Shown in pieces: positions 24,301 through 61,885 of a stretch of DNA of 64,000 bases (within the stretch, counting starts at the first letter, position 1; each line of letters starts with the position of its first letter). Origin of the DNA: Patescibacteria group bacterium. Lineage in GTDB: Bacteria > Patescibacteriota > Patescibacteriia > UBA10025 > JBIOWE01. The notes below the pieces were generated by a model. The model searched no databases and was not told the origin of the DNA. It saw nothing but the letters and a program-made list of their open reading frames with translations. Location: NCBI GenBank assembly GCA_044868145.1, contig JBIOWE010000004.1:333860-397859 (forward strand). Direction: 5' to 3'. The position numbers and the translations under genes are program-made.

Positions 24301-27300
24301 TATCAGTGGCCGAATTGCGTTGACGGACAAACGTTTGATGAAAACGGCGACGGTATATCCGAAACCCACGATGCGGCAACGTGTCCATTGAACCAGGTTG
24401 GGGTAAATCCAGATTGTACGCAGTTTTATGACGATATCGGCAACACCTACACAGTGCTCAAGTCAAGAATCGCCTACGCAGATGCGAACTGCCACCCATA
24501 CAGGAACACTATAGACGGACAGGCAGTGACGTACCATCTTATTCCTGGCCAGGGCATTCAGTGCTCGGCCCAGTATGCGGGCTGTCGCGAGTACAAAGGC
24601 AACGCCGGAACGAACATCCGCACACTTATTTCATCCGACTTTGAGTCCGGCTCCATTAATCCGTGGGCGTCTGATGCGCCGGGGAACTTGAACCCCAGCA
24701 CGGAATCAGTGCAAGTGGGCGGGCACTCCATGCTCGTGTTGACAACCGCCTCGACGAATGTGGAGACGCTCATAACGCAAGGGAAATCGTATCTCATTTC
24801 ATTCTGGGCAAAATCAGACAGCGCGGATACGATTGTGCGCGTTGGCTTTACGAATCCGAATATCGTTTTCCCGGGTCAGGCAGCCGTGAAAGTCCAGGAT
24901 TGGAACCGCTATCAAATGGGTCCGGTATTTTTGAACCAGCCAGTAACCGCGGGCGCGAAGCTTTCCATTTTCTCGGCTGGCGATGCATTCTTTGTTGATA
25001 ATATCATCGTCCAGGAAGTGGTCGATAATATTTATATGATCAAGGGTTCCTACCAAGAATGCGCCGGCTATGAAAACTGCGATGCGTACCGCGACCGCGA
25101 CAACCAAACCCATTACCTGAAATCCTTCTCGAATTTGTGCGCGTCCGATAAAGTCGGCTGCGAAGCAATGATTGACACGAAAAATTCAAGCTCGGCGTTC
25201 AGCGAACAGTTTACGGCGAATCCGGAGCGCGGGGATATGAATGGCGATGGCAAGTACACGTTCGAAGACGGTGAGTACATTATGAATTACATATTTAATC
25301 GGGATGGGCCAAAACCGTATCCAGTACTGCTTGCGGATGTAAACGGTTCTGGCACGATCTCGCTTAGCGACCAAATCTATCTTGTGAATTATATTAATGG
25401 AAACGGCCCCGCACCCGTGCCCTACAATGCGACAAAGCGAACAATCCCTGACGATAGCTACGTGTACATGGTCAATGACCCTGCAAAATACTGCGATGCC
25501 CAAGAAAAAGGCTGTTCAAGACTGGGGACCGTTAACTTTAATTTGAACAATCAGGTTTCCGGATACGCTGATACGTACCTCATCAATAATCCCGATACCT
25601 ATGGTCAGACGCTGTGCAAGTCCTCCGAGCAGAGTTGCGCCGCATTCAACACGGGCAGCGGTACGTCATACTTTAAAGATCCCAAGCGTCAATGTGAATA
25701 TCGAGATGTTGGTGCCGGCCGAACCGGCTGGTACAGAGTAGGGAGTGCGTCATTGACGCCGGATTGTCCGGTCGCGACTGGTTTTTGTTTCGGCGGCGCA
25801 AACGCAGGCGCTGCGTGTGACATCGATAGTGATTGCGGAAGCAACATATGCAAATCTTCTTCGGAAGGCCTTTCTCAGCCGACGAACGGGTGGGTCGGAA
25901 TCTGCCCGGCGGGCCAATCCGGTTGCCAGGAATACAGCGACCCGACGGAATCGCTCGATGCCTCCGTTGGGCAGTGCAAGGTGAATTTGAATACTGGGAC
26001 ATACGAAACGGTGTGTACCGCGGGCGACGGAGCTGGAACGACTAATTGCGATCCGAGCAATCCTGCGCCAGTCTGCGATCCGGATGCTGATGGTGTGAAT
26101 GGCGTCTGCAGCGTCAGCGCAGTGTCTTGCAAACCATATTACTACGTTAATCAAAGCATTGACACCTCATCTTGCTTCGGAACCGTGGACCCGCGTATCG
26201 GGTGCCGTCTGTTCTATGATAGCTCGCAAGGCGCAGCAACGTATGACAGCAGGGCGACCTATACAGAGGTAGATCGCATCAAGCAGCCAACAGCGCCAGT
26301 CACCTGCGCCGATCCAAACAATTGCGATTCAAACCTTATCGTCAAAGTCCGGAACGATCGGGAATGCGGTAAATGGCTCGAATGCGCGACGTCGACTAGA
26401 GTAACGAATACCCGTGGAGAGGTGGAAGAGCTCTGTTTCGATATTAAGGCGTGCAATAAGATTGATCCGAAAACAGGCGCATGCATAGGTACGCGTGCGT
26501 GCTCAAATGATTCGACAAAGAGTTGTACGACCAACGCGGACTGCACGGGAGGTGGAACCTGTGTAGAGCTTGATATTCAGAATTCTAACATTACGCCGCA
26601 CGCCTCAACAAACGTTGATGTCATTAAAAATTCGTCCGGTATTGTTAAGGCAGGCGTGAACTGGGGTTGCTCTAACGATCCTGCCATTGTATGTAAAATA
26701 GATGCGGACTGCGGCTTGGGTAATAAGTGTCAAATCATCAGCGGATTTTACCCCGTGCGCGCCATGACCGAGATTGGGTTAGGAGGCGCTAGCGACGTTG
26801 ATCTTGTAGCCACCGGCGACATGGGGGATATTGATCTGAACGAAGGGTACAAGAAAACGTTTCCAGCCGGTTGGGAACGATCAGGGGCGGACCTCACGCG
26901 GGTGATTGAAGAGGCCTTGGACGGGACGCCGGATCGAGCAAAGATTGACGAAAATAACGTGTTGGTGGTGGACACGAACAGCACCGTCGCCGGGGAAGGC
27001 GTGCAATACCAGCTAACCGGTGTTGGTTCGGCGGAATACGTGGTTTCGCTCAATGCTCGATTCGATGCAACCCCTGAACCGGACGACATGATCGCCGTGA
27101 AGCTTGGCTATTTTAATTCGCTAGGCGTGCTTATTGGTTCGCAATTGATTGGGGACCGTATTCAGCCGACCACCTCATGGGCAAAGTTCGTGTTCGGTCC
27201 TTTGACGCCGAATATTCCCGCGAGCACGGACTCGGTAAAACTGCAGATTGTGCAGGAATCAGCCTCAGGAGGAGACGTGCAAAACGGCATAACGTTTTAT

Positions 27301-29271
27301 CTGGATAACGTTTCCATGAAACCAACGCTCGAAGTGCAAAGCGATCCGCCGAACCCTTCCAATAAGTTAACGCGGACGTGCCGCATGTACCCGCGCTCGG
27401 ATTCAACCCTCTGTCGGTACATTGATAGTAATGGAGCGGAATACAAAGGGTGGTTCGGCTATTGTATTGAACAAGACCCGAAGAATCCGAGCCAATGCAT
27501 TACCTGGTGGCCCGTTGATATTATCGCCGGAGAGTCGAACGTGTTCGGTGCCGGCGTAAAAGCCGGGTATGCGGATCGTGCTCCCTTATATATGTGCGTG
27601 GATTCAAGAGGCAATTATAACCGCGCCGGCAACAAGTATATAATCACAGCTAATGCATATTCCATGTTTTATCTTGACGGCGACTCGTGCGGTAATTCTT
27701 CCGGGGTTGGAAGTTGCGGTCCGACTGCCACGGATATCTACGGTCGGAGTTATTCATATAATTGTAAAGTCAATGGTGCAGGGTTTACATTCGGCGGATG
27801 TGTGCGTAATGCGAGCGGAGGCGGACAAGCGAATTATCGCTATTGGAATATTCCTTCGGCAGGGCAACCAGAATATGGTCTTTTTGATTACGAAATCGAA
27901 CGTGTACTAGGCAGAAAAGTGTCAAATCGCGGTGAATATCCGAACTCCTTCGTCTTAACTGCCAACGATGCCACCACTGACCCAGACCCGGACTTTGTTG
28001 GCCTGCAAGGTAACCTTCCGCTTAACGGTTCCGCATGGGTGTTTAAGTGTTCTCACACCGATGCAGTTTGCGGCGGGCAAGATTTACGCGTTGCCCTAGT
28101 ATTCGACGGTCAGCATCGCTTAATTCGCTACTATGTCTACCTGGATGACTGGACGGGAAGCGAAAACGAAGCCGGAGCGTTCACTCTTGATTTTTATCTC
28201 CGTGAGCAGTGCGAAGCGCTCGCGCAAGTGGTAAAGTCCGGCGGCGATAACGTTGCTTGGGCTGGCAGGTCCTCTTCAGGGTCGCCGTATACCGCTCAAG
28301 ATTTGCAATATAATTATCTGACTGATTTTGCACCATTCGGCGGTGTGCTACAACCAAAGCCGGAAGGCAGCACGCCGGATAGTTGGGCAGTCCCTGTCTA
28401 CGCGGAGCAACGCCAAAATCCGCGAGATACTTCGACGGCTCGGGCGGGCAGCGCCTATGCGTGCGATAATGGTAACTGCAGCACGCGCATGTGCAGTAAT
28501 AGCAGCACGAACGATTGTTCGGACGATAATAAGATTAACACGTGCTTGAAAGGCCAGGATGGTGTGGTGAATACGGCGGATGATGGCTACTGTATTGGAC
28601 TTGGTCCATACCCGCCTGGCGGCACGGGCGGCGGCGTGTGGGCGAGCGGCAAAACCATTGCCCTGGGCATTGATCGCCTCAAGCGTCTATTCGCCGACGT
28701 ATACGTAAGTTGGGCATGGGACTATGCGCAGGGAAAATACGTTATTCAGCAGCCGATTATCAATGCATGGCAGGCTAGCTTTGACGGGATGAGTGAATGT
28801 CCCGGAGCACGCCCGGGTTACCCCAACGATTACTGCGGCATTCGGCCGCAAGCCGGCAACTTACGCATTGTTGCGGGCGGCTCTTCGTATAAATCCGGAG
28901 ATATTACGATCCAGAGCGGTGACACAATACAACTAACATTCACGAGTACGGCAGATCGCGAGCAACTACCGTTGCAGCGCATTCGCATCGATTGGCAGGG
29001 GAATGGCTTTAATACAAATCCCAACGATGGCGATGTTGATGAACCGTGGGGCTTTGCACCCAAAGGCGACCCCGCGAACCCGCATTGGTATAACCACACG
29101 TATACTTCCATTGACGCGGCCACCTGTCCGGGCACCGGCTGCAAGCCGACAATTCAACTAATCGACAACTGGGGTTGGTGCAGTGGTGGATCCGGTGTGG
29201 ACAGGCGGAACGTTCCGGACGGAGTATGTACGTCCGTTGACACCTATCCGGATGATATTATTGTCCAGTAG
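21391..29271 (+). CDS. giant (2626-aa) cysteine-rich extracellular protein with an N-terminal TM anchor and a dockerin-type Ca-binding repeat pair
   Basis: Single long ORF with N-terminal TM RFIAGFILVSILFIIGGTVFLY and more than 100 Cys in recurring C-x-C / CxxC contexts. A dockerin-like tandem (DMNGDGKYTFEDGEYIMNYIFNRDG...ADVNGSGTISLSDQIYLVNYINGNG) lies at about 25234-25410, with Gly-rich C-terminal stretches. The stop is 5 nt before the VirB6-like gene. Confidence 0.7.
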   Translation: MFSKEKKTKRTIRFIAGFILVSILFIIGGTVFLYTRSAQAQFGIPGVPQPTIVVEDVPAKVLNAINKAIKTAADVAFKNVLRQFLNKIAYDAAVYVASGGKGQKPLFLTNPGQLLEKTADNAYGEYLDNLSKQVWGKSLCDQPPFIKARLDVWARQVKDPKITQATCPVSAAVANIQRSTHEQLVDFSKKFNPQASEFGAYLSIISGAEQFSSKQVESTKFVKQLEGEFESVKSTITGAVKTPARTVGDALSSIVPESIKPYATYTGTAIADAIGVFTNTLTSKLIERIFKKGFNPEADTSFREFVGTSSSGVAAARTLFASLNQPDFNVGGSQDILNILASCPPTPAYNNCIIDEKFRIAIEQELTVGEALQQGLLDSSKIFGFDAQGREPTFRNGYPYRSLLVLRHYRIIPAGWELAAGYIQKFEPGNYTLGGLVAQYEQKEKSPGQPNPFYHLIDPNWVLKAPELFCRRQGAGEQVTNEQFSPTFNLDDPNNQISTRQVQRADYCADEQTCLFENEDGSCKRFGYCVEEKPIWRFQGTQCASQFSTCQAFQKQDGTSVAYVQNTIDYNSCNANNAGCQIYCTEFNTSTNQWQCDTGDNLSTGESNIISFNGQVQSCNATAAGCSEFIRTKDGLGTNILANGSFEKFSGTINDQTKDTVDQWGLADVSSEAFSGLAAAQIVPNDSIVSVPLATGFAVGGRTFTLSFHGKRISGDCSSGNTYSLETQGAPSPELSTSFTYFDSWTRYAGTITFPVGTPATNLVVRVGNNATCTSVVDAVQLEEGSQPSDYKDYGSVNKLYLNGQRISCSDEEVGCEQYTSVTTGESIPGKVTNPQICDPNDPSSCDQCPVQYLGCKAYREMPITNTPQRPGQDIISFIASTGQACPASAVGCEEYTNLDEVAGGGEGLEYYSLIRQCVKDDAPNIGTYYTWVGSDEFGYQLKKFELKKSNLGGAPCTNLGIDNPSLPGQYQWPNCVDGQTFDENGDGISETHDAATCPLNQVGVNPDCTQFYDDIGNTYTVLKSRIAYADANCHPYRNTIDGQAVTYHLIPGQGIQCSAQYAGCREYKGNAGTNIRTLISSDFESGSINPWASDAPGNLNPSTESVQVGGHSMLVLTTASTNVETLITQGKSYLISFWAKSDSADTIVRVGFTNPNIVFPGQAAVKVQDWNRYQMGPVFLNQPVTAGAKLSIFSAGDAFFVDNIIVQEVVDNIYMIKGSYQECAGYENCDAYRDRDNQTHYLKSFSNLCASDKVGCEAMIDTKNSSSAFSEQFTANPERGDMNGDGKYTFEDGEYIMNYIFNRDGPKPYPVLLADVNGSGTISLSDQIYLVNYINGNGPAPVPYNATKRTIPDDSYVYMVNDPAKYCDAQEKGCSRLGTVNFNLNNQVSGYADTYLINNPDTYGQTLCKSSEQSCAAFNTGSGTSYFKDPKRQCEYRDVGAGRTGWYRVGSASLTPDCPVATGFCFGGANAGAACDIDSDCGSNICKSSSEGLSQPTNGWVGICPAGQSGCQEYSDPTESLDASVGQCKVNLNTGTYETVCTAGDGAGTTNCDPSNPAPVCDPDADGVNGVCSVSAVSCKPYYYVNQSIDTSSCFGTVDPRIGCRLFYDSSQGAATYDSRATYTEVDRIKQPTAPVTCADPNNCDSNLIVKVRNDRECGKWLECATSTRVTNTRGEVEELCFDIKACNKIDPKTGACIGTRACSNDSTKSCTTNADCTGGGTCVELDIQNSNITPHASTNVDVIKNSSGIVKAGVNWGCSNDPAIVCKIDADCGLGNKCQIISGFYPVRAMTEIGLGGASDVDLVATGDMGDIDLNEGYKKTFPAGWERSGADLTRVIEEALDGTPDRAKIDENNVLVVDTNSTVAGEGVQYQLTGVGSAEYVVSLNARFDATPEPDDMIAVKLGYFNSLGVLIGSQLIGDRIQPTTSWAKFVFGPLTPNIPASTDSVKLQIVQESASGGDVQNGITFYLDNVSMKPTLEVQSDPPNPSNKLTRTCRMYPRSDSTLCRYIDSNGAEYKGWFGYCIEQDPKNPSQCITWWPVDIIAGESNVFGAGVKAGYADRAPLYMCVDSRGNYNRAGNKYIITANAYSMFYLDGDSCGNSSGVGSCGPTATDIYGRSYSYNCKVNGAGFTFGGCVRNASGGGQANYRYWNIPSAGQPEYGLFDYEIERVLGRKVSNRGEYPNSFVLTANDATTDPDPDFVGLQGNLPLNGSAWVFKCSHTDAVCGGQDLRVALVFDGQHRLIRYYVYLDDWTGSENEAGAFTLDFYLREQCEALAQVVKSGGDNVAWAGRSSSGSPYTAQDLQYNYLTDFAPFGGVLQPKPEGSTPDSWAVPVYAEQRQNPRDTSTARAGSAYACDNGNCSTRMCSNSSTNDCSDDNKINTCLKGQDGVVNTADDGYCIGLGPYPPGGTGGGVWASGKTIALGIDRLKRLFADVYVSWAWDYAQGKYVIQQPIINAWQASFDGMSECPGARPGYPNDYCGIRPQAGNLRIVAGGSSYKSGDITIQSGDTIQLTFTSTADREQLPLQRIRIDWQGNGFNTNPNDGDVDEPWGFAPKGDPANPHWYNHTYTSIDAATCPGTGCKPTIQLIDNWGWCSGGSGVDRRNVPDGVCTSVDTYPDDIIVQ

Positions 29272-29275
29272 CGCG

Positions 29276-32053
29276 ATGAAATCGCTCGCAGGCATATTCG
29301 CTTCTCTGAATCCACGCGGCCAAACTTTGCGCCGCGGTATGGTTTTATTGGCCGGCGTTGCTGTCGCGGGAGGCCTCCTGCTCGTTACCACGCAGCCAGC
29401 GCATGCCTCTATTTTGGGAGACGTTGGCGATAAAATCGCCGGATGGATTGCCGGCATTCTTTTTGCCATAGCCACTGTTCTCGGCAAGCTCTTGCTTGTG
29501 GCGATAGAGTTGTTGTTGGCTATTGTGACCTATAATAATTTTACGGACACGGATGCCGTAGTTCGTGGATGGGTGATTGTACGTGATATTGGCAACATGC
29601 TTTTTGTACTGATTTTGCTGACGATGGCATTTGGTACAATCTTGCGTATTCAAACGTACCGGTGGAGTCGGCTCTTAGGTCGCATCATTATGATGGCGAT
29701 TCTGATCAACTTCTCACGAATGATCGCCGGATTCTTCATTGACATTGCGCAGGTGATCATGCTCACGTTTGTTAACGCGTTTGCCCAAAACGCGGCAGGT
29801 ACGTTTACGAACGTCTGGGGCTTAAACGATCTTCTGTCCTTTCTAGATCAACCGAATCCACCTGCAGGCGTTGAGTTACTCGGCTCGGCTTTTTTTATGA
29901 ATGTGTTGCTCGTCGTCGCCATTGTCGTGATGTTCGTTATGGTACTGGTCTTTCTCATGCGCATTATCATGCTCTGGATTCTGGTGGTTCTTTCGCCCAT
30001 TGCGTACCTGCTCTACGCCTTCCCGGCCGGACAGCGTTATGCAAGTCAGTGGTGGGGCGCGTTTGGCCGGTACGTGGTGATTGGCCCGGTCCTTGCGTTT
30101 TTTATCTGGTTCTCGCTCTATATACTTGGTCAATTTCCTGCAGAAGCTTTGTTGAATAAGCCTAGAGCCAGTGTTTCCGGACAGACCGAAGAGCTTTCCG
30201 CAACAGTTATCAAGGCAGGTAGTTCCACAAATATTTTAAATTTCATTATCGCGACTGCCATGCTTGTTGGCTCATTGATGGTGGCGAGACAGATGGGCGG
30301 AATGGCGGGCGCTGCGGCAAGTACGGCCATCGGTAAACTTCGCGCAGCTGGCGCCGGCGCGATCCGCGCGCCGTTGCGCCTTGGCCGCGCTGCCCTGCGT
30401 GGCGCCGGCCAGGTGACTGCCGGAGGATTTGACGCACTGTCGCGGGCAAGGCCTGTGAGAGAGGGGCTCGCGAGAGTTGGCGCATCAGGCATTCCATTGG
30501 TTCGTGACCTTGCTGCCAGAACCCTTGTCGCTTCCGCACAAAGAGAAAAGTCCTATGAAGAACAGGCTGAACGATACGCCAGATTTGTACCTGACACACG
30601 CGTACGAAGTCGATATGCTAATGCTAGATTTGCCATTACGCCGAAACAACGAGCCATGCAACGGGCCTTTCGTAAGCAATCTCCCAGTACCATTAATAAA
30701 GAAGACGAGTTAATAAAATTTGTTGAAGGAATGGATGATGAAGCACTGCGTAAAGTTAAAGACGCAGAGTGGGCAGCAATCGGTAGGAGAGGAATACGAT
30801 TAGGCGCACTAGGACGCGGAGATACGATCATCCGTAAAGATCGCGATGCGCTTGGCGCGTACAATAGGGGTCGAAGCGAATTTTTTACAGCAAAAGGGTT
30901 ACCAGATGGTCTTGATACAGTGGGGGAGGTAGGCCTAAACCAAAACAACCGACCATTAACGGGTTCGAACCGCTTTGGCAACGTACCGAGTCCGGGAACC
31001 ACATATTACGATCGGGTTATGCGGGAAGGGAAGTCTAAGCATCAATATAGATTGGTAGAAGACGAAGAACGGCCAGCAGCAGCAAAGGCAGCAAAGCGCG
31101 GAGAGGGGAATCTGAGCGTTGGTAAATTTGATACAGGCCAAAGCAATGCTCTTGCCGTAGATTTTGACAAATTAGGACTGGAATTTTTGCGTCCGACTGC
31201 TACCCAAAAGTTTAGCCAGACAAAAGGCATTAATATTGATGATCGTGGAGAGATCAGGCAAGTCGCCTCAAAAATGGTTGGCGTTCTTGATCAGGAAATT
31301 GGTAAATTGCGACAACAAGGGGGTCAAGATCGGCGCATTCAAGAGCTTGAACGTTCCCGCGAACGTTTCAGTAAGCCAGAGTCATTTGATCGATTGAATC
31401 TGCTTAACTCAAGTAGCGAAGGTTACGGTGTGCGTGACTTAATGAAAACGCATGTTCATGAAGACTACCATGCAACAGGTGTCAAAGATGAAGAATCCGT
31501 GACGCGCCTAACCGAGCACACGATGCAAAACAGGATTTATAGTCTACGCAAAGGCATTGGAGGGAGCGTCGCAGCAGGCGAATCGAACGTTAATGACATT
31601 CTTACTAAAGAGCGGGGAAGCTTGCGTGCTGAATTCAGCGCGCGACCAAGAACCCGCATTCGAACGGAAACGCCACCAGTCAGCGAAAATGTTGGGAAAC
31701 AAGTTCAGGAGGCCGCAGACTTTCATGGACAATTAGAACAGATGCCGGTGGAAGAGTTTGCGAAGAATGCCAATGAAATAGCAGAACAAGTAAAGAAATT
31801 ATCAGAAGGCCTGAAACAACTGGGAGGCAAGATTGAGGGAGTGCCTAATGTCAATACTCTTGAGAATCAAGTTCGCACCGGTCAATTTACGCCTGAACAA
31901 TGGAAAATCTTTACGAATGATTTTGGAAAGCTTGCGAAAGCTTTGGAAGAACGAACCTCTGCAACGGGGCAAAAACCAACGCAGCCAAAACCTCCACAGC
32001 CACCTGCAAGCAAACCGCCTGAAGAAGAAATTTTTGAATCACCATTTGCATAG
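29276..32053 (+). CDS. VirB6/TrbL-like polytopic T4SS membrane protein with a long hydrophilic C-terminal tail
   Basis: About 925 aa from the ATG at 29276. The N-terminal 330 aa have 6-7 TM helices arranged as in TrbL/VirB6 (LGKLLLVAIELLLAIVTYNNFTD...NMLFVLILLTMAFGTILR...FFMNVLLVVAIVVMFVMVLVFLM). The tail is charged and coiled-coil-rich, ending in Pro-rich KPTQPKPPQPPASKPP. Confidence 0.55.
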   Translation: MKSLAGIFASLNPRGQTLRRGMVLLAGVAVAGGLLLVTTQPAHASILGDVGDKIAGWIAGILFAIATVLGKLLLVAIELLLAIVTYNNFTDTDAVVRGWVIVRDIGNMLFVLILLTMAFGTILRIQTYRWSRLLGRIIMMAILINFSRMIAGFFIDIAQVIMLTFVNAFAQNAAGTFTNVWGLNDLLSFLDQPNPPAGVELLGSAFFMNVLLVVAIVVMFVMVLVFLMRIIMLWILVVLSPIAYLLYAFPAGQRYASQWWGAFGRYVVIGPVLAFFIWFSLYILGQFPAEALLNKPRASVSGQTEELSATVIKAGSSTNILNFIIATAMLVGSLMVARQMGGMAGAAASTAIGKLRAAGAGAIRAPLRLGRAALRGAGQVTAGGFDALSRARPVREGLARVGASGIPLVRDLAARTLVASAQREKSYEEQAERYARFVPDTRVRSRYANARFAITPKQRAMQRAFRKQSPSTINKEDELIKFVEGMDDEALRKVKDAEWAAIGRRGIRLGALGRGDTIIRKDRDALGAYNRGRSEFFTAKGLPDGLDTVGEVGLNQNNRPLTGSNRFGNVPSPGTTYYDRVMREGKSKHQYRLVEDEERPAAAKAAKRGEGNLSVGKFDTGQSNALAVDFDKLGLEFLRPTATQKFSQTKGINIDDRGEIRQVASKMVGVLDQEIGKLRQQGGQDRRIQELERSRERFSKPESFDRLNLLNSSSEGYGVRDLMKTHVHEDYHATGVKDEESVTRLTEHTMQNRIYSLRKGIGGSVAAGESNVNDILTKERGSLRAEFSARPRTRIRTETPPVSENVGKQVQEAADFHGQLEQMPVEEFAKNANEIAEQVKKLSEGLKQLGGKIEGVPNVNTLENQVRTGQFTPEQWKIFTNDFGKLAKALEERTSATGQKPTQPKPPQPPASKPPEEEIFESPFA

Positions 32054-33402: not shown

Positions 33403-33686
33403 GATATTCTTTAGACAGAAAAAGCCCTTCCCACCGAGGGTTTTTGTTTTTATAGTTATCATCGCCCCTCCGGGAGTGTACGCGCCTGTACAAGGTTCGC
33501 AGGACTCCCCTCCTTACCAAGGAGGGGAAGAACGGACGACACAGGCTTCGACCCAAGATAGTTTCTCAAGGGGAGGTCCGAGGGGCAGTCCAAAACCATA
33601 TGACGACCCTCTTTAATAGAAAGTTATTACCTTAAAACGCGGCCTTTTCGCATTAAAAAATGCTCCTTACGGCAATAAATCCCGGT

Positions 33687-33715
33687 TTGATTTTTTTGGC
33701 AACTTCTGATATAAT
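33687..33715 (+). promoter_or_regulatory. sigma70-like promoter (TTGATT-17-TATAAT) for the second T4SS-like operon
   Basis: ttgatt at 33687-33692 and tataat at 33710-33715. A 13-bp tandem duplication, tttcatggttgaa x2, follows at 33739-33766. Confidence 0.4.
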
Positions 33716-33763
33716 AAACTCCGCAGCACGTGGTAAAAAAGCACTATTTCATGGTTGAATTTC

Positions 33764-34897: not shown

Positions 34898-35320
34898 ATG
34901 CAACAGTTTGTTGTTCCACAATTCATTGATGTAGAAAGCAAAATTATCGGTCCACTGACTGTGCGGCAGTTTTTGATTTTCTTATTGGCCGCCGGTCTAA
35001 TTTTTGCAACGTTCAAGATTTTTTCCTTTGCGCCAGCGGCCGTGCTCACTATTCTGATATTCGCAATCGCGGTTGTCTTCGCTGCGGTCAAAATTAACGG
35101 TCGGCCATTCCATTATTTTATTATTTCGCTTATCCAAACGAGCAAGCGGCCCCCACTGAAAATATGGGAAAAACAATTGACGCAACATGAGCGAAAACGC
35201 AAAGACAAAGAAAAGACTGAACGAACCGAGATTATTGTGGCAAAGAAACCATTGACAAAATCGCGCCTGACCGAACTTTCCCTCATCGTCGACACCGGAG
35301 GCGCGTTTAAAGAAGAGTAA
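34898..35320 (+). CDS. PrgI-family (VirB3-like) T4SS membrane protein
   Basis: 140 aa with the N-terminal signature MQQFVVPQFIDVESKIIGPLTVRQFLIFLLAAGLIF, followed by a second TM helix. Confidence 0.65.
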   Translation: MQQFVVPQFIDVESKIIGPLTVRQFLIFLLAAGLIFATFKIFSFAPAAVLTILIFAIAVVFAAVKINGRPFHYFIISLIQTSKRPPLKIWEKQLTQHERKRKDKEKTERTEIIVAKKPLTKSRLTELSLIVDTGGAFKEE

Positions 35321-35324
35321 GAGT

Positions 35325-36002
35325 ATGGCAAAAGACGAAAAAAAACGAAAAGAAGCTTATTCAACCCAGCGTTATTTGGACATTTTGGAAATCAAAGACG
35401 ACTGTGTTGTTTTGAAGGATGGCACGCTCCGCGGGGTTATGCTGGTTTCGTCGATCAACTTTGCGCTCAAGTCCGAAGAAGAGCAGAATGCTGTTATATC
35501 CGGGTACATGCAGTTTTTGAACTCACTGGATTTTCCCATTCAGATCGTCGTTCAATCACGCAAATTGAATATTGACGAATACATTGAACGACTCAAAGAT
35601 ATCGAGAAGCGGCAAACGAATGATCTCTTACGCATCCAAACGCAAGAATATCGTCAGTATATCGGTGAACTTGTCGAACTATCGGATATCATGAGCAAGA
35701 AGTTTTATGTTGTCATTCCATTCGCACCCGGCAAAGGAGGCACGAAGAAATTCTTTTCCGTGTTCCGAGAAGCGCTCTCACCGACGTCGGTGATCCATTT
35801 GAAACAAAAAAAATTCGAAAAGTATCGGGACGAGCTTGGTAAGCGTGTCGGATACGTTTTGAGCGGACTTTCTTCAACCGGCTTGAATGCGGTTCAGCTT
35901 GACACCCAGGGTCTCATTGAGCTGTATTACGACACGTACAATCCGGAAATCGCGCCCCAACAAAAATTTGTGGAAGCGAATAAACTTAATCTTGAAGCAT
36001 AA
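35325..36002 (+). CDS. VirB4/TraE-like conjugative ATPase, N-terminal fragment (split gene)
   Basis: 225 aa. LDILEIKDDCVVLKDGTLRGVMLVSSINFALKSEEEQNAVISGYMQFLNSLDFPIQIVVQSRKLNIDEY matches the N-terminal region of Gram-positive VirB4 (PrgJ/TraE). It ends with a TAA 2 nt before the ATG of the next ORF. Confidence 0.6.
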   Translation: MAKDEKKRKEAYSTQRYLDILEIKDDCVVLKDGTLRGVMLVSSINFALKSEEEQNAVISGYMQFLNSLDFPIQIVVQSRKLNIDEYIERLKDIEKRQTNDLLRIQTQEYRQYIGELVELSDIMSKKFYVVIPFAPGKGGTKKFFSVFREALSPTSVIHLKQKKFEKYRDELGKRVGYVLSGLSSTGLNAVQLDTQGLIELYYDTYNPEIAPQQKFVEANKLNLEA

Positions 36003-36004
36003 TT

Positions 36005-37918
36005 ATGGTTGAATTTTTCCGAAAACGCACGCCATTGCCAACGGAGCCCCTTGGGCAGCTGACGTCCGAAGAGCAGCGTCGGCTCCGGGAGCAAACGATT
36101 GAGGAAAAAAAGGAAACTCTGGAAGCCGAGCAGGTGTACAGACGCGGTGTTGTCACCGTTCGGGATTTGATCGCGCCTTCGGCGATGAAGGTAGAACCAC
36201 GGTACATGGAGCTCAATGGCAGGTTTGTTCGGACGATTTTCGTCGTCGCCTATCCGCGCTACATTAGCGTTGGCTGGTTCGCGCCGATCATCAATTTAAA
36301 CACGCCGCTTGATATTTCAATGTTTTTTTACCCGCTTGGCTCCGAGGTCATTTTGAAGCAGCTAAGAAATAAAGTTGGCGCGTTGCAAGCGCAAATTCTC
36401 TCGGACGCGGAAAAAGGCGCGCCGCGCGATCCTATACGCGAAACTGCGCTTCGCGACATAGAAAAACTTCGCGACGACTTGACGCAAGGAATTGAGAAAT
36501 TTTTTCAATATGCGCTCTATGTAACGTTGTACGCGGATTCAAAGGAGCAGCTTGAACAAATTTCGGAAAAAGTGGAAACGCTGTTCGGAACCCGACTCAT
36601 TTATACCAAACGCGTTCTCTATCAAGCAGAGCAAGGTTTTAATTCAACCCTGCCCCTTGGAACGGACCAGCTCATGATTGCGTTTAACATGAATACGTCG
36701 CCATGCGCGTCGTCGTTTCCTTTTATTTCTTCCGAGCTTACGTCTGACAATGGTATTTTGTACGGTATTAACCGTCATAATAACAGTTTGATACTTTTCG
36801 ACCGGTTTTCGCTGCAAAACGCAAATTCCGTGGTGTTTGCGACGTCAGGCGCCGGCAAGAGTTACGCAATCAAACTCGAAGTGCTCCGCAGTATGATGCT
36901 CGGAACGGACGTTATTATTATTGACCCGGAACGCGAGTACAAATATTTATCCGATGCAGTAGGAGGGACGTACATAAACATCTCACTGAACTCGGAAAGT
37001 AAGATTAACCCCTTTGACTTGCCGAAAAATCCAGGCGACGAAAAGCCGGCAGACATCATTCGTTCGGCGGTCATTGCGCTCAAGGGTCTTGTTCGTTTGA
37101 TGCTCGGGGAGCTTTCCCACGAAGAGGACGCGATTGTTGATCGTGCGCTCATCGAGACCTATGCCAAAAAAGACATTACACCGGACGCGGACCTTTCCAA
37201 AGTCGAATCGCCTCTTATGAGCGACTTTCAGGAAGTGCTTTCCGGCATGGCTGGAGCGGACAATCTCGTTACGCGGCTGCGAAAGTTCACCGAAGGCACG
37301 TTTTCCGGGTTGTTCAATAGTCCGACAAACGTGGAGATTAATAATCAACTGGTTGTTTTCACTGTACGGGACTTGGAAGATGAGCTGCGACCTATCGGGA
37401 TCCAAATCATTATTGCGCATATTTGGAACGTCGTCCGCTCGCAACTGAAAAAACGCATTCTTGTTATTGACGAAGGATGGTGGCTGATGCAGCATGAAGA
37501 TTCGGCCAAGTTTATTTTCGCGCTCGTGAAGCGATGCCGAAAATATTACCTCGGCATTACGACGATTACGCAAGACGTCACTGACTTTTTACGGTCGCCG
37601 TATGGCCAAGCCATAGTGACCAACTCCTCCATTCAGTTGCTTATGAAACAGTCGCCCGCGGCCATTGATATCGTCGCGAAGACTTTTTTACTCACGGAGG
37701 GCGAACGGTACCTGCTCCTCGAGAGTAACGTTGGCGAGGGAATTTTCTTTGCGGGCGCCAAGCACGCCGCCATTAAGGTGGTTGCCTCCTACACCGAAGA
37801 TCAGGTGATTACGTCTGACCCGCGCCAGCTCTTAGAAATCGAGCAAGCAAAAAAGGAGTTTGAGCAACAGTTTGCAGAGCAAGGCGCTGAACGCCAGCCC
37901 CAGGCTGCCGCAACATAA
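36005..37918 (+). CDS. VirB4-like T4SS ATPase (central and C-terminal ATPase domains)
   Basis: 637 aa with Walker A FATSGAGKSYAIK and Walker B/helical region ILVIDEGWWLM. It continues the VirB4 N-region homology (GRFVRTIFVVAYPRYISVGWFAPIINLNTPLDISMFFYP). Confidence 0.8.
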   Translation: MVEFFRKRTPLPTEPLGQLTSEEQRRLREQTIEEKKETLEAEQVYRRGVVTVRDLIAPSAMKVEPRYMELNGRFVRTIFVVAYPRYISVGWFAPIINLNTPLDISMFFYPLGSEVILKQLRNKVGALQAQILSDAEKGAPRDPIRETALRDIEKLRDDLTQGIEKFFQYALYVTLYADSKEQLEQISEKVETLFGTRLIYTKRVLYQAEQGFNSTLPLGTDQLMIAFNMNTSPCASSFPFISSELTSDNGILYGINRHNNSLILFDRFSLQNANSVVFATSGAGKSYAIKLEVLRSMMLGTDVIIIDPEREYKYLSDAVGGTYINISLNSESKINPFDLPKNPGDEKPADIIRSAVIALKGLVRLMLGELSHEEDAIVDRALIETYAKKDITPDADLSKVESPLMSDFQEVLSGMAGADNLVTRLRKFTEGTFSGLFNSPTNVEINNQLVVFTVRDLEDELRPIGIQIIIAHIWNVVRSQLKKRILVIDEGWWLMQHEDSAKFIFALVKRCRKYYLGITTITQDVTDFLRSPYGQAIVTNSSIQLLMKQSPAAIDIVAKTFLLTEGERYLLLESNVGEGIFFAGAKHAAIKVVASYTEDQVITSDPRQLLEIEQAKKEFEQQFAEQGAERQPQAAAT

Positions 37919-38510: not shown

Positions 38511-39095
38511 ATGGCGAACGACATCGATAGCCTGCAGTCCGGACGAAGCCCGGGTTCGCGCGAGGAGCAGAAAACGATCGCGCAACAGCTTGAAAAAGAA
38601 ACGGCGCGCAAGATGTACCTGAACCGCCGCGCAACAGAGCAAACAACGCTTCGCGAGCTGCCGTCGAGTCGAACAACAAAACCAGAACAAGAAGAAGCGC
38701 GGTCCGAGGAAGAAGAATCTAGCCAGTCGTTCGTTGAGAATGAAGACCAGTCGAATGTGTCGCAGGGCCAGGAACGATCCGTGGCCAGTTCTTTTCAGCA
38801 AAAACTACAGATGGCCCGACAGGTCGCGAGCAAGGAGGTAAAAACAGAGATGTCAGTTGCTGCCGAAGCTACCGCAAAGGCTGCATCACGAGCCGCTGTT
38901 ATGGCTGTGCGAGGCGCGGCGCTTGCCGTGATCAACGCAGTCGGCGCGGTTATAGGATTTATTGCGGGGTTTGGCTGGCCGGTGTTACTTGGAATTTTAA
39001 TAGTTATTGTGCTTGGCTTTCTCATAAGTGATCCAGTATCTGCTTCCAAACTTGGCGTGTGCTTCATTGTTGAAGCCCTGGGCTTTAGTTGCTGA
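38511..39095 (+). CDS. hypothetical protein with an acidic N-terminal region and a C-terminal two-helix hydrophobic hairpin
   Basis: About 195 aa from the ATG at 38511. The C-terminus reads AAVMAVRGAALAVINAVGAVIGFIAGFGWPVLLGILIVIVLGFLI. Confidence 0.35.
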   Translation: MANDIDSLQSGRSPGSREEQKTIAQQLEKETARKMYLNRRATEQTTLRELPSSRTTKPEQEEARSEEEESSQSFVENEDQSNVSQGQERSVASSFQQKLQMARQVASKEVKTEMSVAAEATAKAASRAAVMAVRGAALAVINAVGAVIGFIAGFGWPVLLGILIVIVLGFLISDPVSASKLGVCFIVEALGFSC

Positions 39096-39100
39096 TAGAT

Positions 39101-40075
39101 ATGAATCATCGAACCAGAATTTTCCTCTTTTTTCTTGCAATCTTTGTTCTTTCTCTTTTTGTATTGCCGCACGCAGCCTCCGCCCAACTCCAGACGCTCA
39201 CGGACGTCTGCAAAGTGACAAATGAAAAGGACGCGATCCACCTGAATGTCGGGTTTTCGGTACCGGGCGTCATTTTCGAACTGCCCGCGGGCAGCGGCGA
39301 ATTTTACGTGAAGAATTTCGGATGCTATATCGGCGGGTTTTATCGTTACTTTGCCGGCGTGGCTGGCATTCTCGCGGCCGTGCTTATCATGTGGGGTGGG
39401 TATAAATACGTTACATCGTTCGGCAACCCTAGTAGACTCTCCGATGCGAAAGACACGATTCAACAGGCGTTGATTGGGCTCGCGTTCGTGCTCGGCACAT
39501 ACATTATTCTCTACACTATTAATCCGAACCTTGTCATTCTGCAAACGCCACAGTTGCCTATCATTCCTTCCGTTGAGCTCACCAAATCTTACGACTGGGA
39601 AAATGTACGATTCTGTCGAGAAAAAGCACAGTTTACAACTGCCAGCTGCGGAGGAATCTTCAATGCGGGTAAGACTGATGAGTGCCGAATGGTCAGCAAC
39701 GGTTGCAAGAATTCGAACGGCATTTGCGTGGCGGCCAAGAACAGTTACGCTGGATTAACGCGACCAGCCGATCTAAAACAAGGTGATATTTTCATCAATT
39801 GTCAGGAGTCAATATTGTTGTCCTACACAAAACCCGGGGAGTCCGAGGAGAAAGAGAGAACCTTGGTTGGAGATCCGAACGTGGACTGTGGCTACATCAA
39901 AGATGATATCGGCGGTCTACATTTAACCGGAAATCGAGGCGTTGGCATGAAATGCCCAGCGGATAAATATGGATGTGTGATTATTAATGACGCCGGGTTC
40001 GTGATTTACGGAGCGGGAGACTTACAACCTGGCAATGGAATTATTGGAGCATTTCTCAATGCAACATGCTATTAG
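39101..40075 (+). CDS. secreted protein with a pilin-like two-helix membrane module and a Cys-rich C-terminal domain
   Basis: Signal peptide MNHRTRIFLFFLAIFVLSLFVLPHAASA. The module GGFYRYFAGVAGILAAVLIMWGGYKYVTSFGNPSRLSDAKDTIQQALIGLAFVLGTYIILYTINPNLV is paralogous to the N-terminal region of the VirB1-like protein at 41346. The C-terminal domain carries about 12 Cys. Confidence 0.5.
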   Translation: MNHRTRIFLFFLAIFVLSLFVLPHAASAQLQTLTDVCKVTNEKDAIHLNVGFSVPGVIFELPAGSGEFYVKNFGCYIGGFYRYFAGVAGILAAVLIMWGGYKYVTSFGNPSRLSDAKDTIQQALIGLAFVLGTYIILYTINPNLVILQTPQLPIIPSVELTKSYDWENVRFCREKAQFTTASCGGIFNAGKTDECRMVSNGCKNSNGICVAAKNSYAGLTRPADLKQGDIFINCQESILLSYTKPGESEEKERTLVGDPNVDCGYIKDDIGGLHLTGNRGVGMKCPADKYGCVIINDAGFVIYGAGDLQPGNGIIGAFLNATCY

Positions 40076-40089: not shown

Positions 40090-41346
40090 ATGCGTAGAAT
40101 TTTTGTCATCGCTGGCTTCGCACTCCTTGTGGTAGGCATTGGTATTGCCATTTATTTTGTATTTTTCCGCGGCGCTGGTGGACCCACGAATAACGCGAAC
40201 GTCGGAAACGCGAACACGAACATTGGCGGTTTTCCTGTCACCAACGGCAACGTGAACGGCTCCATTGTAAACTTTACGGTTAACGGAAACGTCAACGTGG
40301 GAGGTCCAATTACGAATGCAGTCTTGCCGGAAATAGATACCATCGCTCGGGGAGGAAAAACGCTCACGAACGATCTTTCCCAACAAAGCATCATGGCTCC
40401 GTCGATCGGGCCAGACGGCAAAAGCGTCGTGTTTTACGATCCGATCACCGGACTGTTTTATGAGCTGTCGCCTGACGGAAAAACGAAACGACAGCTTTCC
40501 GACCAACGTTTTCCGAACGCCGAGAAAATATCCTGGGCGCCAGACGGCACCCGCGCCATTGTTACGTTTCCGGACGGAAGCAAAGTGCTGTACGATTTTT
40601 CGACCAAGCAACAAGTAACGCTCCCGCGCGAATGGGACAACATTGTGTTTTCCGGCGATGGAACAAAAATAGGGTTTAAAGACTTGCAGGAAAACGTGGA
40701 TAACCGGTGGCTCTCAATTGCGAATCCGGATGGGTCAAGCGTGCAATCGATTGAGCCAATTGGCGACAAAGGGGACGACGTTCAGGTTGCCTGGTCGCCG
40801 ACGAGCCAGGTGATAGCTTTATTCCGCGAGGGCAGTTCGGGTTCAACCCAGGAAGTGTTTCCCATTGGGCAGCACGGTGAGAACTTTAAATCCTTTGCCG
40901 TGGATGGCCGGGGCTTTGAAGGCGCATGGTCTCCGAAGGGCGACCGCTTGCTCTATAATGTGTTTAACGCGGGTTCGGACTACAAACCGACCCTTTGGAT
41001 CGTGGACGCATCGGGCGATAACATCGGGAACAACAACCGCGCTCTGGGCGTGCAAACCTGGGCGAATAAGTGCGTTTTCTCGAGCGATAACGTCACGATA
41101 TTTTGTGCGGTGCCGAGCGATTTACCAGAGGGAGCTGCGTTGTATCCGGACATCGCTCAAAACGTGCCGGATACGTTTTATCGCATCAATACACAAACGG
41201 GTTTGAGGACGGTTCTCGCGCAACCCGTCAATGCTCAAGGCGGCGGTTCGTATACGGTTCGATCGCCTTTTCTATCCGAAGGTGAACAGAATTTGTACTT
41301 CACGGATTCGTTGAGCGGGCGCCTCTATACAATTCAATTAAAATAA
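40090..41346 (+). CDS. TolB-like PD40/WD40-type beta-propeller protein, membrane-anchored
   Basis: 418 aa with N-terminal TM and repeated SWAPDGTRAIV / VFSGDGTKIGF / AWSPTSQVIAL / AWSPKGDRLLY blades. Confidence 0.55.
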   Translation: MRRIFVIAGFALLVVGIGIAIYFVFFRGAGGPTNNANVGNANTNIGGFPVTNGNVNGSIVNFTVNGNVNVGGPITNAVLPEIDTIARGGKTLTNDLSQQSIMAPSIGPDGKSVVFYDPITGLFYELSPDGKTKRQLSDQRFPNAEKISWAPDGTRAIVTFPDGSKVLYDFSTKQQVTLPREWDNIVFSGDGTKIGFKDLQENVDNRWLSIANPDGSSVQSIEPIGDKGDDVQVAWSPTSQVIALFREGSSGSTQEVFPIGQHGENFKSFAVDGRGFEGAWSPKGDRLLYNVFNAGSDYKPTLWIVDASGDNIGNNNRALGVQTWANKCVFSSDNVTIFCAVPSDLPEGAALYPDIAQNVPDTFYRINTQTGLRTVLAQPVNAQGGGSYTVRSPFLSEGEQNLYFTDSLSGRLYTIQLK

Positions 41347-42356
41347 TGGTCATAAGATTTTCTTTTCGCAAGGCCGTTCTTATTGGGCTTGCATTGGTTT
41401 TTGCATTCGTTATGTTCAACGTCCTTGCGTTAGCCGCGCACGCTCAACAGGATACGTCAAAGGGCGCAACTTTTCGTCCGAACATCACTATTCCCGGCTC
41501 CAAGTTTATCGCAGGCCAAGAAGTCGTAATTAACGGTGATACCATCGGCGAATGGATCGCCGCGTTTTACGTATTTTTTGTCGGCATCGCCGGCATACTT
41601 GCCACAGTCATGATTATGTGGGGCGGCTACAAGTATATTACCTCATTCGGCAATGCAACGCGCACGCAGGGCGCAAAAGATACGATCACCCAGGCGCTCA
41701 TCGGTTTAGCAATGACGCTCGGCGCTTACATTATCCTCCTCACCATCAATCCGAACCTCGTGCAGTTTAAAAGCTTGACGTTGGCGCCGATTCCCTCTCA
41801 CGAACTTGGCGAGCGCGGGGAAGCAAGTCTCAAAGGCGCGGCGCACTGGGACGGCAATAACGTGGCGACCTACGACAATCTCTTGAGAGCTGCGGCGGAT
41901 AGCTACGGACTTGACCGCGATTGGATGAAAGCAATTATGCTTGTTGAGTCAGGCGGGAATCCGAACGCGGTGTCGCCCGCGCAGGCATGCGGGCTTATGC
42001 AGCTTCTGCCTTCCACGGCGAACTTGACGTGTGAGCAACTAAAGAATCCCGCAGCAAACATTGACGCGGCAGGGAAGTATTTGCGAAGCCTGACGAACCT
42101 GACGTGCCCGCAAAATGCAACGTTGAGAGACAATACGGCTGTTTCCTGTGATCCGAGAAAAACGAAATGTCGAAACGGCGATATTCATTACATCGTGGCC
42201 GCGTACAACGGTGGCGTTGGGGCGAACTGTTCAAGCGTTTCTTGCCCGGGCAGTACCTGGTGGGAATGCCCGGTGAACACAGGATTTGACGAAACGAGAA
42301 GTTACGTTCAACTGGTCCAAACCGCATACGACAAAATAAAGCTGAATGGGTGGTAG
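41346..42356 (+). CDS. VirB1-like lytic transglycosylase (SLT domain) with an N-terminal pilin-like membrane module
   Basis: 336 aa. The N-terminal module IAAFYVFFVGIAGILATVMIMWGGYKYITSFGNATRTQGAKDTITQALIGLAMTLGAYIILLTINPNLV matches that of 39101. The SLT catalytic region is DRDWMKAIMLVESGGNPNAVSPAQACGLMQLLPSTA (ES...GLMQ). Confidence 0.7.
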   Translation: MVIRFSFRKAVLIGLALVFAFVMFNVLALAAHAQQDTSKGATFRPNITIPGSKFIAGQEVVINGDTIGEWIAAFYVFFVGIAGILATVMIMWGGYKYITSFGNATRTQGAKDTITQALIGLAMTLGAYIILLTINPNLVQFKSLTLAPIPSHELGERGEASLKGAAHWDGNNVATYDNLLRAAADSYGLDRDWMKAIMLVESGGNPNAVSPAQACGLMQLLPSTANLTCEQLKNPAANIDAAGKYLRSLTNLTCPQNATLRDNTAVSCDPRKTKCRNGDIHYIVAAYNGGVGANCSSVSCPGSTWWECPVNTGFDETRSYVQLVQTAYDKIKLNGW

Positions 42357-50685: not shown

Positions 50686-50746
50686 ATGTTTCAAAAACAA
50701 AACACCTTCCTCTGGGGAAGGCGTTTTCATTATTGATTCGTGACTT

Positions 50747-53301: not shown

Positions 53302-53412
53302 GTCAACCCCCACACCAATTTCAATTAATGTTTGATTGAAAAAGAGGAGGGTAGTTTGTGAAATGAGTTTCTTCTGAATGCGCTGATTGTTTTAAAATTG
53401 GTGTGGGGGTCA
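53302..53412. repeat. MITE-like repeat, family C copy 2 (opposite orientation to copy 1)
   Basis: gtcaacccccacaccaatttcaa ... ttaaaattggtgtgggggtca. Internally it is similar to the reverse complement of copy 1. Its right TIR contains the stop codon of the minus-strand gene at 53410. Confidence 0.6.
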
Positions 53413-54087: not shown

Positions 54088-54091
54088 ATTT

Positions 54092-56528: not shown

Positions 56529-56550
56529 TTTCAAGAAATCTTGGTACAAT
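56522..56550 (+). promoter_or_regulatory. near-consensus sigma70 promoter (TTGACA-17-TACAAT) for the first YVTN-propeller paralog
   Basis: ttgaca at 56522-56527, a 17-nt spacer, and tacaat at 56545-56550. Confidence 0.55.
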
Positions 56551-56637
56551 GAATCAGTACGAAAAACGGTTTCATGAGTTGATTATCACGTATTTTCGTG
56601 ATTCTGTCAATTTATTTACCATTTTAAAACAAACAGA

Positions 56638-59782: not shown

Positions 59783-59795
59783 TAACCATATCATG

Positions 59796-59822: not shown

Positions 59823-59834
59823 GAAGTCACTGAA

Positions 59835-61838: not shown

Positions 61839-61844
61839 ATATTG

Positions 61845-61873: not shown

Positions 61874-61885
61874 GAGCGTGCTGAA

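Follow-up and report, generated by a model that had tools for sequence, protein, structure and literature searches.

The staphylococcal conjugative plasmids pGO1 and pSK41 carry a subclass of the MPF_FATA T4SS in which TrsD (TraD) and TrsE (TraE) are encoded side by side. In pSK41 a gene for a 135-aa VirB3-like protein is followed by those for TrsD (227 aa) and TrsE (672 aa), and the plasmid also possesses a relaxase and a coupling protein. TrsD has been described as a remote homologue of the N-terminal portion of VirB4 and as the T4SS component that Patescibacteria carry in the greatest number (PMC12102498). In that survey 1,664 of the 2,272 TrsD copies in Patescibacteria are adjacent to virB4, about 27%, plus those of Gracilibacteria, are unlinked to it, and the copy of Southlakia epibionticum is listed as essential. 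The Patescibacteria T4SS of Quinonero-Coronel et al. 2025 (PMC12102498) and Wang et al. 2023 (PMC10633639) have a TrsD homologue beside VirB4 together with PrgI/VirB3, VirB6-like and VirB2-like pilin components; they are chromosomal and have no relaxase nearby. Pairing of TrsD with VirB4 has been published for Patescibacteria as well as for pGO1/pSK41-type plasmids, and existing Pfam and NCBIfam models cover it. PMC12102498 does not set out the complementary "split gene" mapping or the rare fused form, both reported below; a literature text search for "split VirB4" returned no papers, and TrsD is not named in the main text of Guglielmini et al. 2014.

Here we analyze such a locus in a Patescibacteria genome, within a stretch of 64,000 nucleotides (the window).

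Results

Two genes and their junction

A preliminary description of the window had presented a VirB4 ATPase gene split into two ORFs by an in-frame TAA, with re-initiation at an ATG 2 nt downstream. Its coordinates were borne out: ORF1 extends from the ATG at 35325 to the TAA at 36000-36002 (225 aa) and ORF2 from the ATG at 36005 to the TAA at 37916-37918 (637 aa), giving the 862 aa mentioned there, and the junction reads aTAATTATGg with TT at 36003-36004. The statement that the TAA is in frame did not hold. The two ORFs lie in different frames ((start-1) mod 3 = 2 vs 1), so the TAA interrupts no continuous frame and is simply the stop codon of ORF1. Upstream of its ATG the frame of ORF2 is closed by a TGA at 35993-35995, 10 nt away, and the frame of ORF1 continued past the TAA runs into a TGA after 19 more codons.

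The genes of this chromosomal T4SS operon are closely packed, and the 2-nt junction is ordinary among them; elsewhere in the operon the gaps measure 2, 3, 4, 6, -17, -7, 14 and -1 nt. Scanning for promoters and terminators yielded no more sites overall than expected from shuffled sequence, and none where ORF1 meets ORF2. Neither ORF2 nor most of the operon's genes are preceded by an evident Shine-Dalgarno-like motif. All features are listed in Table 1.

Table 1. Features of the T4SS locus in the window (positions are those of the window).
Feature	Position	Strand	Evidence
Candidate VirB6/TrbL-like polytopic membrane protein, 956 aa (mechanical ORF call)	29183..32053	+	Weak Pfam TrbL match: E 2.3e-4, 21.4 bits, cutoff 25.9
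Promoter-like site, within the one long intergenic gap along this row of genes	33687..33715	+	Consensus scan, 10/12 matches, extended TG
Small membrane protein of the PrgI family (VirB3-like), 140 aa; 4 nt separate it from ORF1 downstream	34898..35320	+	PF12666, E 1e-8, 36 bits vs cutoff 27
ORF1, TrsD/TraC-like protein, 225 aa: first module of the N-terminal domain of VirB4, as a protein of its own	35325..36002	+	NCBIfam, PF26593, alignment, Foldseek
Gene junction TAA-TT-ATG	36000..36007	+	ORF2 in +2 frame relative to ORF1
ORF2, VirB4 ATPase proper, 637 aa: rest of N-terminal domain and P-loop C-terminal domain	36005..37918	+	NCBIfam, Pfam, alignment
Walker A ATSGAGKS, ORF2 aa 279-286	36839..36862	+	Translation and alignment
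Walker B-like ILVIDE, ORF2 aa 485-490	37457..37474	+	Translation and alignment
VirB2-like T4SS pilin-domain protein, 328 aa	39089..40075	+	PF18895 T4SS_pilin, 26.7 bits vs cutoff 26.6; NCBIfam Mbov_0395 pilin-like, E 5e-4
Pilin-domain and SLT lytic transglycosylase protein (predicted VirB1-like function), 336 aa	41346..42356	+	Pfam SLT, E 6.5e-19; T4SS_pilin, E 6.6e-9

ORF1 resembles the N-terminus of VirB4

The peptide SSINFALKSEEEQNAVISGYMQFLNSLDFPIQIVVQS, quoted earlier as evidence of a PrgJ/TraE-type VirB4, was found in the ORF1 translation, and the similarity to the VirB4 N-terminus proved real: ORF1 matched the NCBIfam models VirB4_plasma (positions 93-284 of 894), CD1110 (20-118 of 752) and TIGR00929 (2-144 of 792). 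The comparison with PrgJ was a loose one, PrgJ-type VirB4s being single-chain proteins; the proper comparator for ORF1 and ORF2 is the TrsD plus TrsE subclass of pGO1/pSK41. Against the TrsD/TraD model NF041427, ORF1 (aa 23-113, profile positions 24-121 of 201) scored 29.6 bits (E 5.6e-7), far below the curated cutoff of 200 bits. With pSK41 TrsD itself, BLASTP gave 7e-7 with 26% identity over 136 aa, and hhalign a probability of 50% over 72 columns. On these scores ORF1 is best regarded as a remote homologue of TrsD/TraD and not as a member by the NCBI threshold.

The precomputed annotation of exactly this protein (P0001, gene table of locus L085) and of all its 120 best homologues contains PF26593, "TraC-like". 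Our own Pfam hmmscan of ORF1 gave no significant match and did not return PF26593 at E<=10; the Pfam copy scanned may lack the model. Comparison with 35 homologues identified 45 invariant columns, including the C-terminal E224. The AF2 model of ORF1 had a pLDDT of 71.6, and R388 TrwK/VirB4 (7O41-7O43, 8RTB, 8RTD) was the sole fold family among its top 14 Foldseek matches in the PDB. These matches had TM values of 0.34-0.44, E about 6e-3 and ~11% identity, and may be called weak but specific. TrwK belongs to a diderm system and is a single-chain VirB4, unlike the two-gene form in the window. The PDB sequence search with ORF1 found no VirB4, only spurious matches (a designed repeat protein and an ABC transporter).

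ORF2 supplies the remainder of VirB4

ORF2 passed NF045971 (CD1110-family VirB4; TIGR00929 superfamily) with 372.6 bits against a cutoff of 325, over positions 165-729 of 752. It also matched Pfam P-loop_TraG (E 3.8e-27) and could be aligned to pSK41 TrsE. When the patterns GxxGxGK[ST] and hhhhDE were applied, Walker A and Walker B were both found intact. The VirB4 N-terminal domain is incomplete in ORF2, which starts at about position 165 of the CD1110 profile and at about aa 227 of a fused 831-aa VirB4 of Bacillus mycoides. The missing part is ORF1. Alignment with the B. mycoides protein placed ORF1 aa 13-217 on its aa 26-212 and ORF2 aa 35-608 on its aa 227-818, and the NCBIfam coordinates were likewise complementary, ORF2 covering the remainder of the models matched by ORF1. 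ORF1 and ORF2 are thus collinear with and complementary to fused VirB4s and together make up one complete VirB4.

Concatenated, the two products are collinear with the whole of a single-chain monoderm VirB4 (CD1110 family, e.g. the 831-aa B. mycoides plasmid protein; PrgJ type). Such a VirB4 is one polypeptide, whereas in the window a gene of its own encodes the first ~210 residues. A rare relative, P0270 (898 aa), has both parts joined through a linker of ~90 aa, which constitutes Rosetta-stone evidence.

The break point is conserved

Comparison of orthologous loci, which had been suggested as a check, demonstrated that the split is conserved. We analyzed 80 species-level Patescibacteria loci (Kerfeld-, Falkow-, Buchanan-, Kuenen-, Magasanik-, Komeili-, Veblenbacteria and others). 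In 76 of them the ORF1 homologue (49-68% protein identity) stops at the same homologous position, corresponding to query aa 221-225, and is followed on the same strand by a VirB4 gene (63-82% identity). The distance between the two genes ranged from -14 to +484 nt, and the frame offset was 0, 1 or 2 in 14, 25 and 37 loci, respectively. In roughly half of the related loci the gap exceeds 15 nt, indicating that translational coupling is no conserved requirement. The best 120 of 7,519 ORF1 homologues were 207-250 aa long and came from Patescibacteria throughout; among the top 150 representatives of 50%-identity clusters, all except one were 132-443 aa long. Forms of the N-terminal piece extended at the C-terminus to 300-540 aa are frequent. 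One locus, L080, has a TrsD homologue with no VirB4 after it.

Equivalent break points were found in pSK41 and in three further records: Paenibacillus polymyxa (PrgI followed by products of 332 and 641 aa), Clostridioides difficile BI1 (PrgI followed by products of 322 and 640 aa) and a haloarchaeal plasmid of Haloglomus (products of 541 and 781 aa, in this order). Both the break point and the encoding by separate genes are therefore conserved across many CPR lineages and beyond; the split is ancient. The fused VirB4 of B. mycoides is closest to pSK41 TrsE, which belongs to a split pair, a hint that fission or fusion took place more than once.

Comparison of the locus with described systems

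The window has the gene order of pGO1/pSK41, with a VirB3-like gene first, then one for a product of the TrsD size range (~200-230 aa) and then one for a short VirB4-like ATPase (~640-670 aa). The three products measure 140, 225 and 637 aa, compared with 135, 227 and 672 aa in pSK41, and the pSK41 break point relative to fused VirB4 is that of the window. There are differences: the likeness of ORF1 to pSK41 TrsD is remote in sequence, the system is chromosomal and not on a conjugative plasmid, and it is accompanied by VirB2-like pilin genes (PF18895, cutoff 26.6 bits, scores of 26.7 and 36.2). The relaxase and coupling protein of pSK41 also have no counterpart among the window ORFs scanned. 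The Pfam scan, which left out ORFs below 100 aa and some longer ones (e.g. 49999-50730, 53410-54273, 54092-54994, minus strand), found no relaxase or T4CP domain in 28 window ORFs, nor near the three tRNA genes. The flanking genes encode LeuRS, a KsgA-like methylase, RecG, HisRS, a ClpB-like protein and tRNAs.

With the published Patescibacteria T4SS (PMC12102498, PMC10633639) the window shares the TrsD homologue beside VirB4, PrgI/VirB3 next to VirB4, a candidate VirB6-like protein (below the Pfam cutoff), the VirB2-like pilins, the chromosomal context and the absence of a nearby relaxase among the ORFs scanned. No substantive difference was seen, and the locus is one more instance of these systems. 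The neighbouring T4SS genes are all intact. The true start of the VirB6/TrbL-like ORF is probably later than called, since the call overlaps the previous gene by 89 nt. The promoter-like site could mark the start of a transcription unit containing the PrgI, TrsD-like and VirB4 genes; this is a hint only, because the number of such sites was not above shuffle expectation.

Discussion

We consider it about 90% probable, judging from sequence comparisons, that VirB4 is encoded here as two separate polypeptides by design, a TrsD-like protein and the ATPase. Among the alternatives offered in the preliminary description, a genuine two-polypeptide VirB4 is the one that is strongly supported, by the stop conserved in 76 of 80 loci, by thousands of free-standing homologues of ~225 aa and by the pSK41-type architecture.

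The other alternatives named there were decay, an assembly artefact and recoding, and each is refuted by the data. Two adjacent ORFs that sum to a normal VirB4 length superficially look like a single-chain virB4 broken by a recent nonsense or frameshift mutation, with a dead T4SS, but a recent lesion is very improbable when the stop position is kept in so many species at 49-68% identity, each with its own downstream start codon and with spacers varying up to 484 nt. The 45 invariant columns of ORF1, E224 included, the intact Walker motifs of ORF2 and the intact neighbouring genes also speak against it. The assembly is of metagenome type, which might have let an assembly or base-call error create an artificial stop or frameshift at 36000-36004. 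The chance of this is negligible. A Logan contig from run SRR30692719, the product of a separate assembly, shows no difference from the window over 2,678 nt that span the junction, an identity that also counts against a pseudogene, and the same gene boundary occurs in dozens of genomes that were assembled independently, one of them a "chromosome" record, CP181398.1. The spacing of only 2 nt between stop and start could likewise be taken to favour readthrough or programmed frameshifting that would yield a fused 862-aa VirB4. Readthrough would, however, stay in the frame of ORF1 and end 19 codons on. A -1 shift would be confined to about 5 nt (35996-36000) because of the TGA at 35993-35995 in the frame of ORF2, and no slippery heptamer is found there. 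In relatives the offset takes any value and the gap reaches hundreds of nucleotides, so that no conserved recoding signal exists. We regard recoding as no more credible than decay.

Somewhat more weight, though still little, can be given to the idea that the TrsD-like protein acts independently as an accessory factor, having diverged as a paralogue of the VirB4 N-terminus, and that ORF2 is a self-sufficient short VirB4. TrsD homologues do occur away from virB4, in L080, in Gracilibacteria and in about 27% of copies (PMC12102498). Against this, ORF2 has no counterpart of aa 1-226 of fused VirB4, and ORF1 fills exactly that stretch with no overlap; a natural fusion, P0270, exists, and linkage and gene order are kept in most loci.

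Under the two-polypeptide reading, the 225-aa TrsD/TraC-like protein corresponds to roughly the first 210 residues of single-chain VirB4, and the 637-aa protein to the remainder of the N-terminal domain with the P-loop ATPase domain. Both genes lie directly after the VirB3-like PrgI in the order of the pGO1/pSK41 monoderm subclass (VirB3-like, TrsD, TrsE). The complementary mapping and the natural fusion P0270 suggest that the two proteins form a VirB4-like unit through non-covalent association. In the R388 structures a membrane-proximal surface of VirB4 contacts VirB3, and by analogy the TrsD-like piece may supply this surface. The 2-nt spacing could allow translational coupling and hence matched synthesis of both chains.

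The locus L080 and the unlinked copies reported in PMC12102498 indicate that some independence of TrsD function is possible. We tentatively raise the possibility, which we think doubtful at present, that the detached N-terminal module is no passive fragment but an adaptor subunit under regulation of its own, which could have another stoichiometry than the ATPase hexamer or other partners (VirB3, pilins). Such a role is suggested by the conserved break at one linker, the rare re-fusions (P0270 and the B. mycoides plasmid protein) and the frequent C-terminal extensions of the N-terminal piece.

Beyond annotation, current understanding is unchanged, and the finding of a two-gene VirB4 is an ordinary one. 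When adjacent ORFs add up to the length of a known protein, a conserved natural split is often the reason. The proper annotation of the 225-aa gene is TrsD/TraC-like (VirB4 N-terminal module) and not "hypothetical" or "virB4 pseudogene fragment", and the T4SS locus should be treated as an intact, probably functional one that has not decayed. If the adaptor role were true, the Patescibacteria and pGO1/pSK41-type systems would provide a natural dissection of what the N-terminal subdomain of VirB4 does.

The ORF1/ORF2 junction

The preliminary description read the virB4 gene as cut in two by an in-frame TAA. The coordinates, the TAA/ATG spacing and the total of 862 aa for ORF1 and ORF2 were confirmed on the window sequence, and only two nucleotides (TT) separate the TAA of ORF1 from the ATG of ORF2. 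However, the reading frames of the two ORFs differ. A TGA at 35993-35995 closes the frame of ORF2, and the frame of ORF1, followed past the TAA, reaches a TGA 19 codons on. The TAA is therefore the terminator of ORF1 itself and not a break in a continuous virB4 frame.

Features of the T4SS gene row, in order along the window
Feature	Position	Strand	Length (aa)	Remarks
Large protein	21391-29271	+	2,626	weak CBM_4_9 and dockerin matches; directly upstream of TrbL/VirB6-like gene
TrbL/VirB6-like candidate	29183-32053	+		mechanical ORF call
Two genes				no assigned function
PrgI (small VirB3-like membrane protein)	34898-35320	+		followed by TrsD-like gene, then VirB4
ORF1 (TrsD-like)	35325-36002	+	225	ATG 35325; TAA 36000-36002
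ORF2 (VirB4 ATPase)	36005-37918	+	637	ATG 36005
Two small genes				no assigned function
T4SS pilin-domain protein	39089-40075	+	328	
Beta-propeller protein				
Pilin-SLT protein	41346-42356	+	336	T4SS_pilin aa 65-130; SLT lytic transglycosylase aa 180-294

Products of ORF1 and ORF2

ORF2 scored 372.6 bits against the NCBIfam CD1110-family VirB4 model (cutoff 325; profile positions 165-729 of 752) and also matched Pfam P-loop_TraG, AAA_10 and DUF87. Both Walker motifs, A (ATSGAGKS) and B (ILVIDE), are intact, and ORF2 is a bona fide VirB4-family ATPase. ORF1 matched only N-terminal parts of VirB4 models (VirB4_plasma 93-284 of 894, CD1110 20-118 of 752, TIGR00929 2-144 of 792), as well as the TrsD/TraD family model (E 5.6e-7). 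When the PDB was searched with an AlphaFold2 model of ORF1, built on a 35-sequence alignment (pLDDT 71.6), the 14 best matches were R388 TrwK/VirB4 chains, with weak scores (E from 6e-3, TM 0.34-0.44).

Alignment to the single-chain 831-aa VirB4 of a Bacillus mycoides plasmid placed aa 13-217 of ORF1 on aa 26-212 and aa 35-608 of ORF2 on aa 227-818. Against this fused protein the two ORFs are collinear, do not overlap and are jointly complete. Fused forms occur among close relatives and are rare; one cluster representative, P0270 (898 aa), carries a TrsD-like part (aa 4-223), a proline-containing linker of about 90 aa and a VirB4 body that shares 51% identity with ORF2, all in a single chain. 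Such fusions are Rosetta-stone evidence that both pieces work together.

Conservation of the split

In a 90%-clustered protein collection ORF1 has 7,519 homologues. The 120 best range from 207 to 250 aa; all of them carry a precomputed Pfam PF26593 ("TraC-like") match, and their names refer to Patescibacteria or Kerfeldbacteria. When 1.84 billion 50%-identity representatives were searched with a profile, 3,305 clusters came up, with lengths of 132-443 aa in 149 of the top 150. Many free-standing TrsD-like proteins among the representatives P0121-P0270 are 300-440 aa long, with C-terminal extensions past a core of about 225 aa; they resemble the 322-541-aa forms of Firmicutes and haloarchaeal plasmids.

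Eighty loci from distinct species genomes were compared (Kerfeld-, Falkow-, Buchanan-, Kuenen-, Magasanik-, Komeili-, Veblenbacteria and others). This check, proposed in the preliminary description, found the split conserved in 76: there the stop of the ORF1 homologue falls at the equivalent residue (query aa 221-225), and the next gene, on that strand as well, encodes a VirB4 homologue with 63-82% identity. Spacing between the two genes varies from -14 to +484 nt (median 10.5), with a frame offset of 0 in 14 loci, 1 in 25 and 2 in 37. Three of the four exceptions are cut by a contig edge. In the fourth (JBBUCQ010000038.1, 2164-4839) the TrsD-like gene (243 aa) precedes an unrelated 641-aa ORF, which is not VirB4 and gave no match in an NCBIfam scan. 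PMC12102498 mentions TrsD copies that are not linked to virB4, of which this locus is an example.

Since spacer and frame vary freely while the protein boundary is fixed, we conclude that these are two old, independent genes. The same pattern is incompatible with the other explanations that had been offered. Readthrough or recoding at the TAA is rejected: the frames differ here, and the variable offsets in relatives leave no room for a conserved recoding signal. Decay of virB4 into a pseudogene by recent mutation does not fit an ORF1 end kept across species. An assembly or sequencing error is contradicted by the boundary in relatives and by a contig from the Logan assembly of SRR30692719, which agrees with the window at every base of a 2,678-nt stretch spanning the junction. 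The first explanation, a genuine two-polypeptide VirB4, is thus the one retained, and we give a two-gene VirB4 at this locus a probability of about 0.9.

The same layout is found outside Patescibacteria. In Staphylococcus aureus pSK41 a 135-aa protein is followed by TrsD (227 aa, annotated TrsD/TraD family) and a 672-aa DUF87/VirB4-like ATPase; the Paenibacillus polymyxa megaplasmid (NZ_CP139199) has PrgI, 332 aa and a 641-aa ATPase, the Clostridioides difficile BI1 record (NC_017177) PrgI, 322 aa and 640 aa, and a Haloglomus plasmid 541 and 781 aa. Pairwise alignments located an equivalent break point in all four. In P. polymyxa and C. difficile a sigma-70 family sigma-factor gene, and in Paenibacillus also clpX, precedes the split VirB4. 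Both records are very large and of PLSDB type non-mobilizable, so these loci, too, may be non-conjugative T4SS-like systems.

Gene row and flanks

The T4SS genes form a tightly packed co-directional row with inter-gene distances of 2, 3, 4, 2, 6, -17, -7, 14 and -1 nt, so the ORF1/ORF2 junction is not special. The TrbL/VirB6-like call overlaps the preceding ORF by 89 nt and probably starts further downstream. Only one gap is long (352 nt, 33403-33754). A terminator-like hairpin lies in it at 33420-33445, as does a promoter-like site at 33687-33715, so two transcription units may make up the row. In the pilin-domain protein, unusually long for a pilin, the VirB2-like T4SS_pilin match is limited to aa 84-135 and a cysteine-rich C-terminal region of about 190 aa follows. 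From its domains, the pilin-SLT protein resembles a VirB1-type enzyme attached to a pilin-like membrane anchor.

Housekeeping genes flank the row (LeuRS, rRNA dimethylase, RecG, HisRS, a ClpB-like gene, tRNAs). The scan of 28 window ORFs detected neither a relaxase nor a coupling-protein domain, in keeping with the chromosomal T4SS lacking a relaxase that is known from Patescibacteria. Three successive large ORFs at 56522-63844 (+; 1,086, 681 and 652 aa) gave no Pfam match at E<=1e-5.

Proposed function and relation to published work

The TrsD-like and ATPase chains complement each other, are conserved and linked, and in occasional cases are fused. VirB4 is most likely made as two chains; the TrsD-like one would dock non-covalently onto the ATPase and rebuild the VirB4 N-terminal domain. 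In published R388 structures the N-terminal region of VirB4 engages VirB3; by analogy, the TrsD-like chain would be the region engaging VirB3, which fits the conserved PrgI-TrsD-VirB4 gene order. We regard these docking and adaptor details as somewhat favoured. The TAA-TT-ATG junction would permit termination-reinitiation coupling in this genome; such coupling is not universal, because spacers exceed 15 nt in about half of the relatives.

TrsD, a distant homologue of the N-terminal part of VirB4, is the most abundant T4SS component of Patescibacteria (2,272 homologues, 1,664 of them VirB4-associated), is known elsewhere only from the pGO1-type MPF_FATA subclass, and has a copy listed as essential in Southlakia epibionticum ML1 (Quinonero-Coronel et al. 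2025, PMC12102498). Epibiotic growth requires the T4SS cluster (Wang et al. 2023, PMC10633639). From these accounts, the two-gene TrsD-VirB4 arrangement is already known; all that is added here is the explicit complementary mapping, the conservation of the break point between systems, and a rare relative in fused form.
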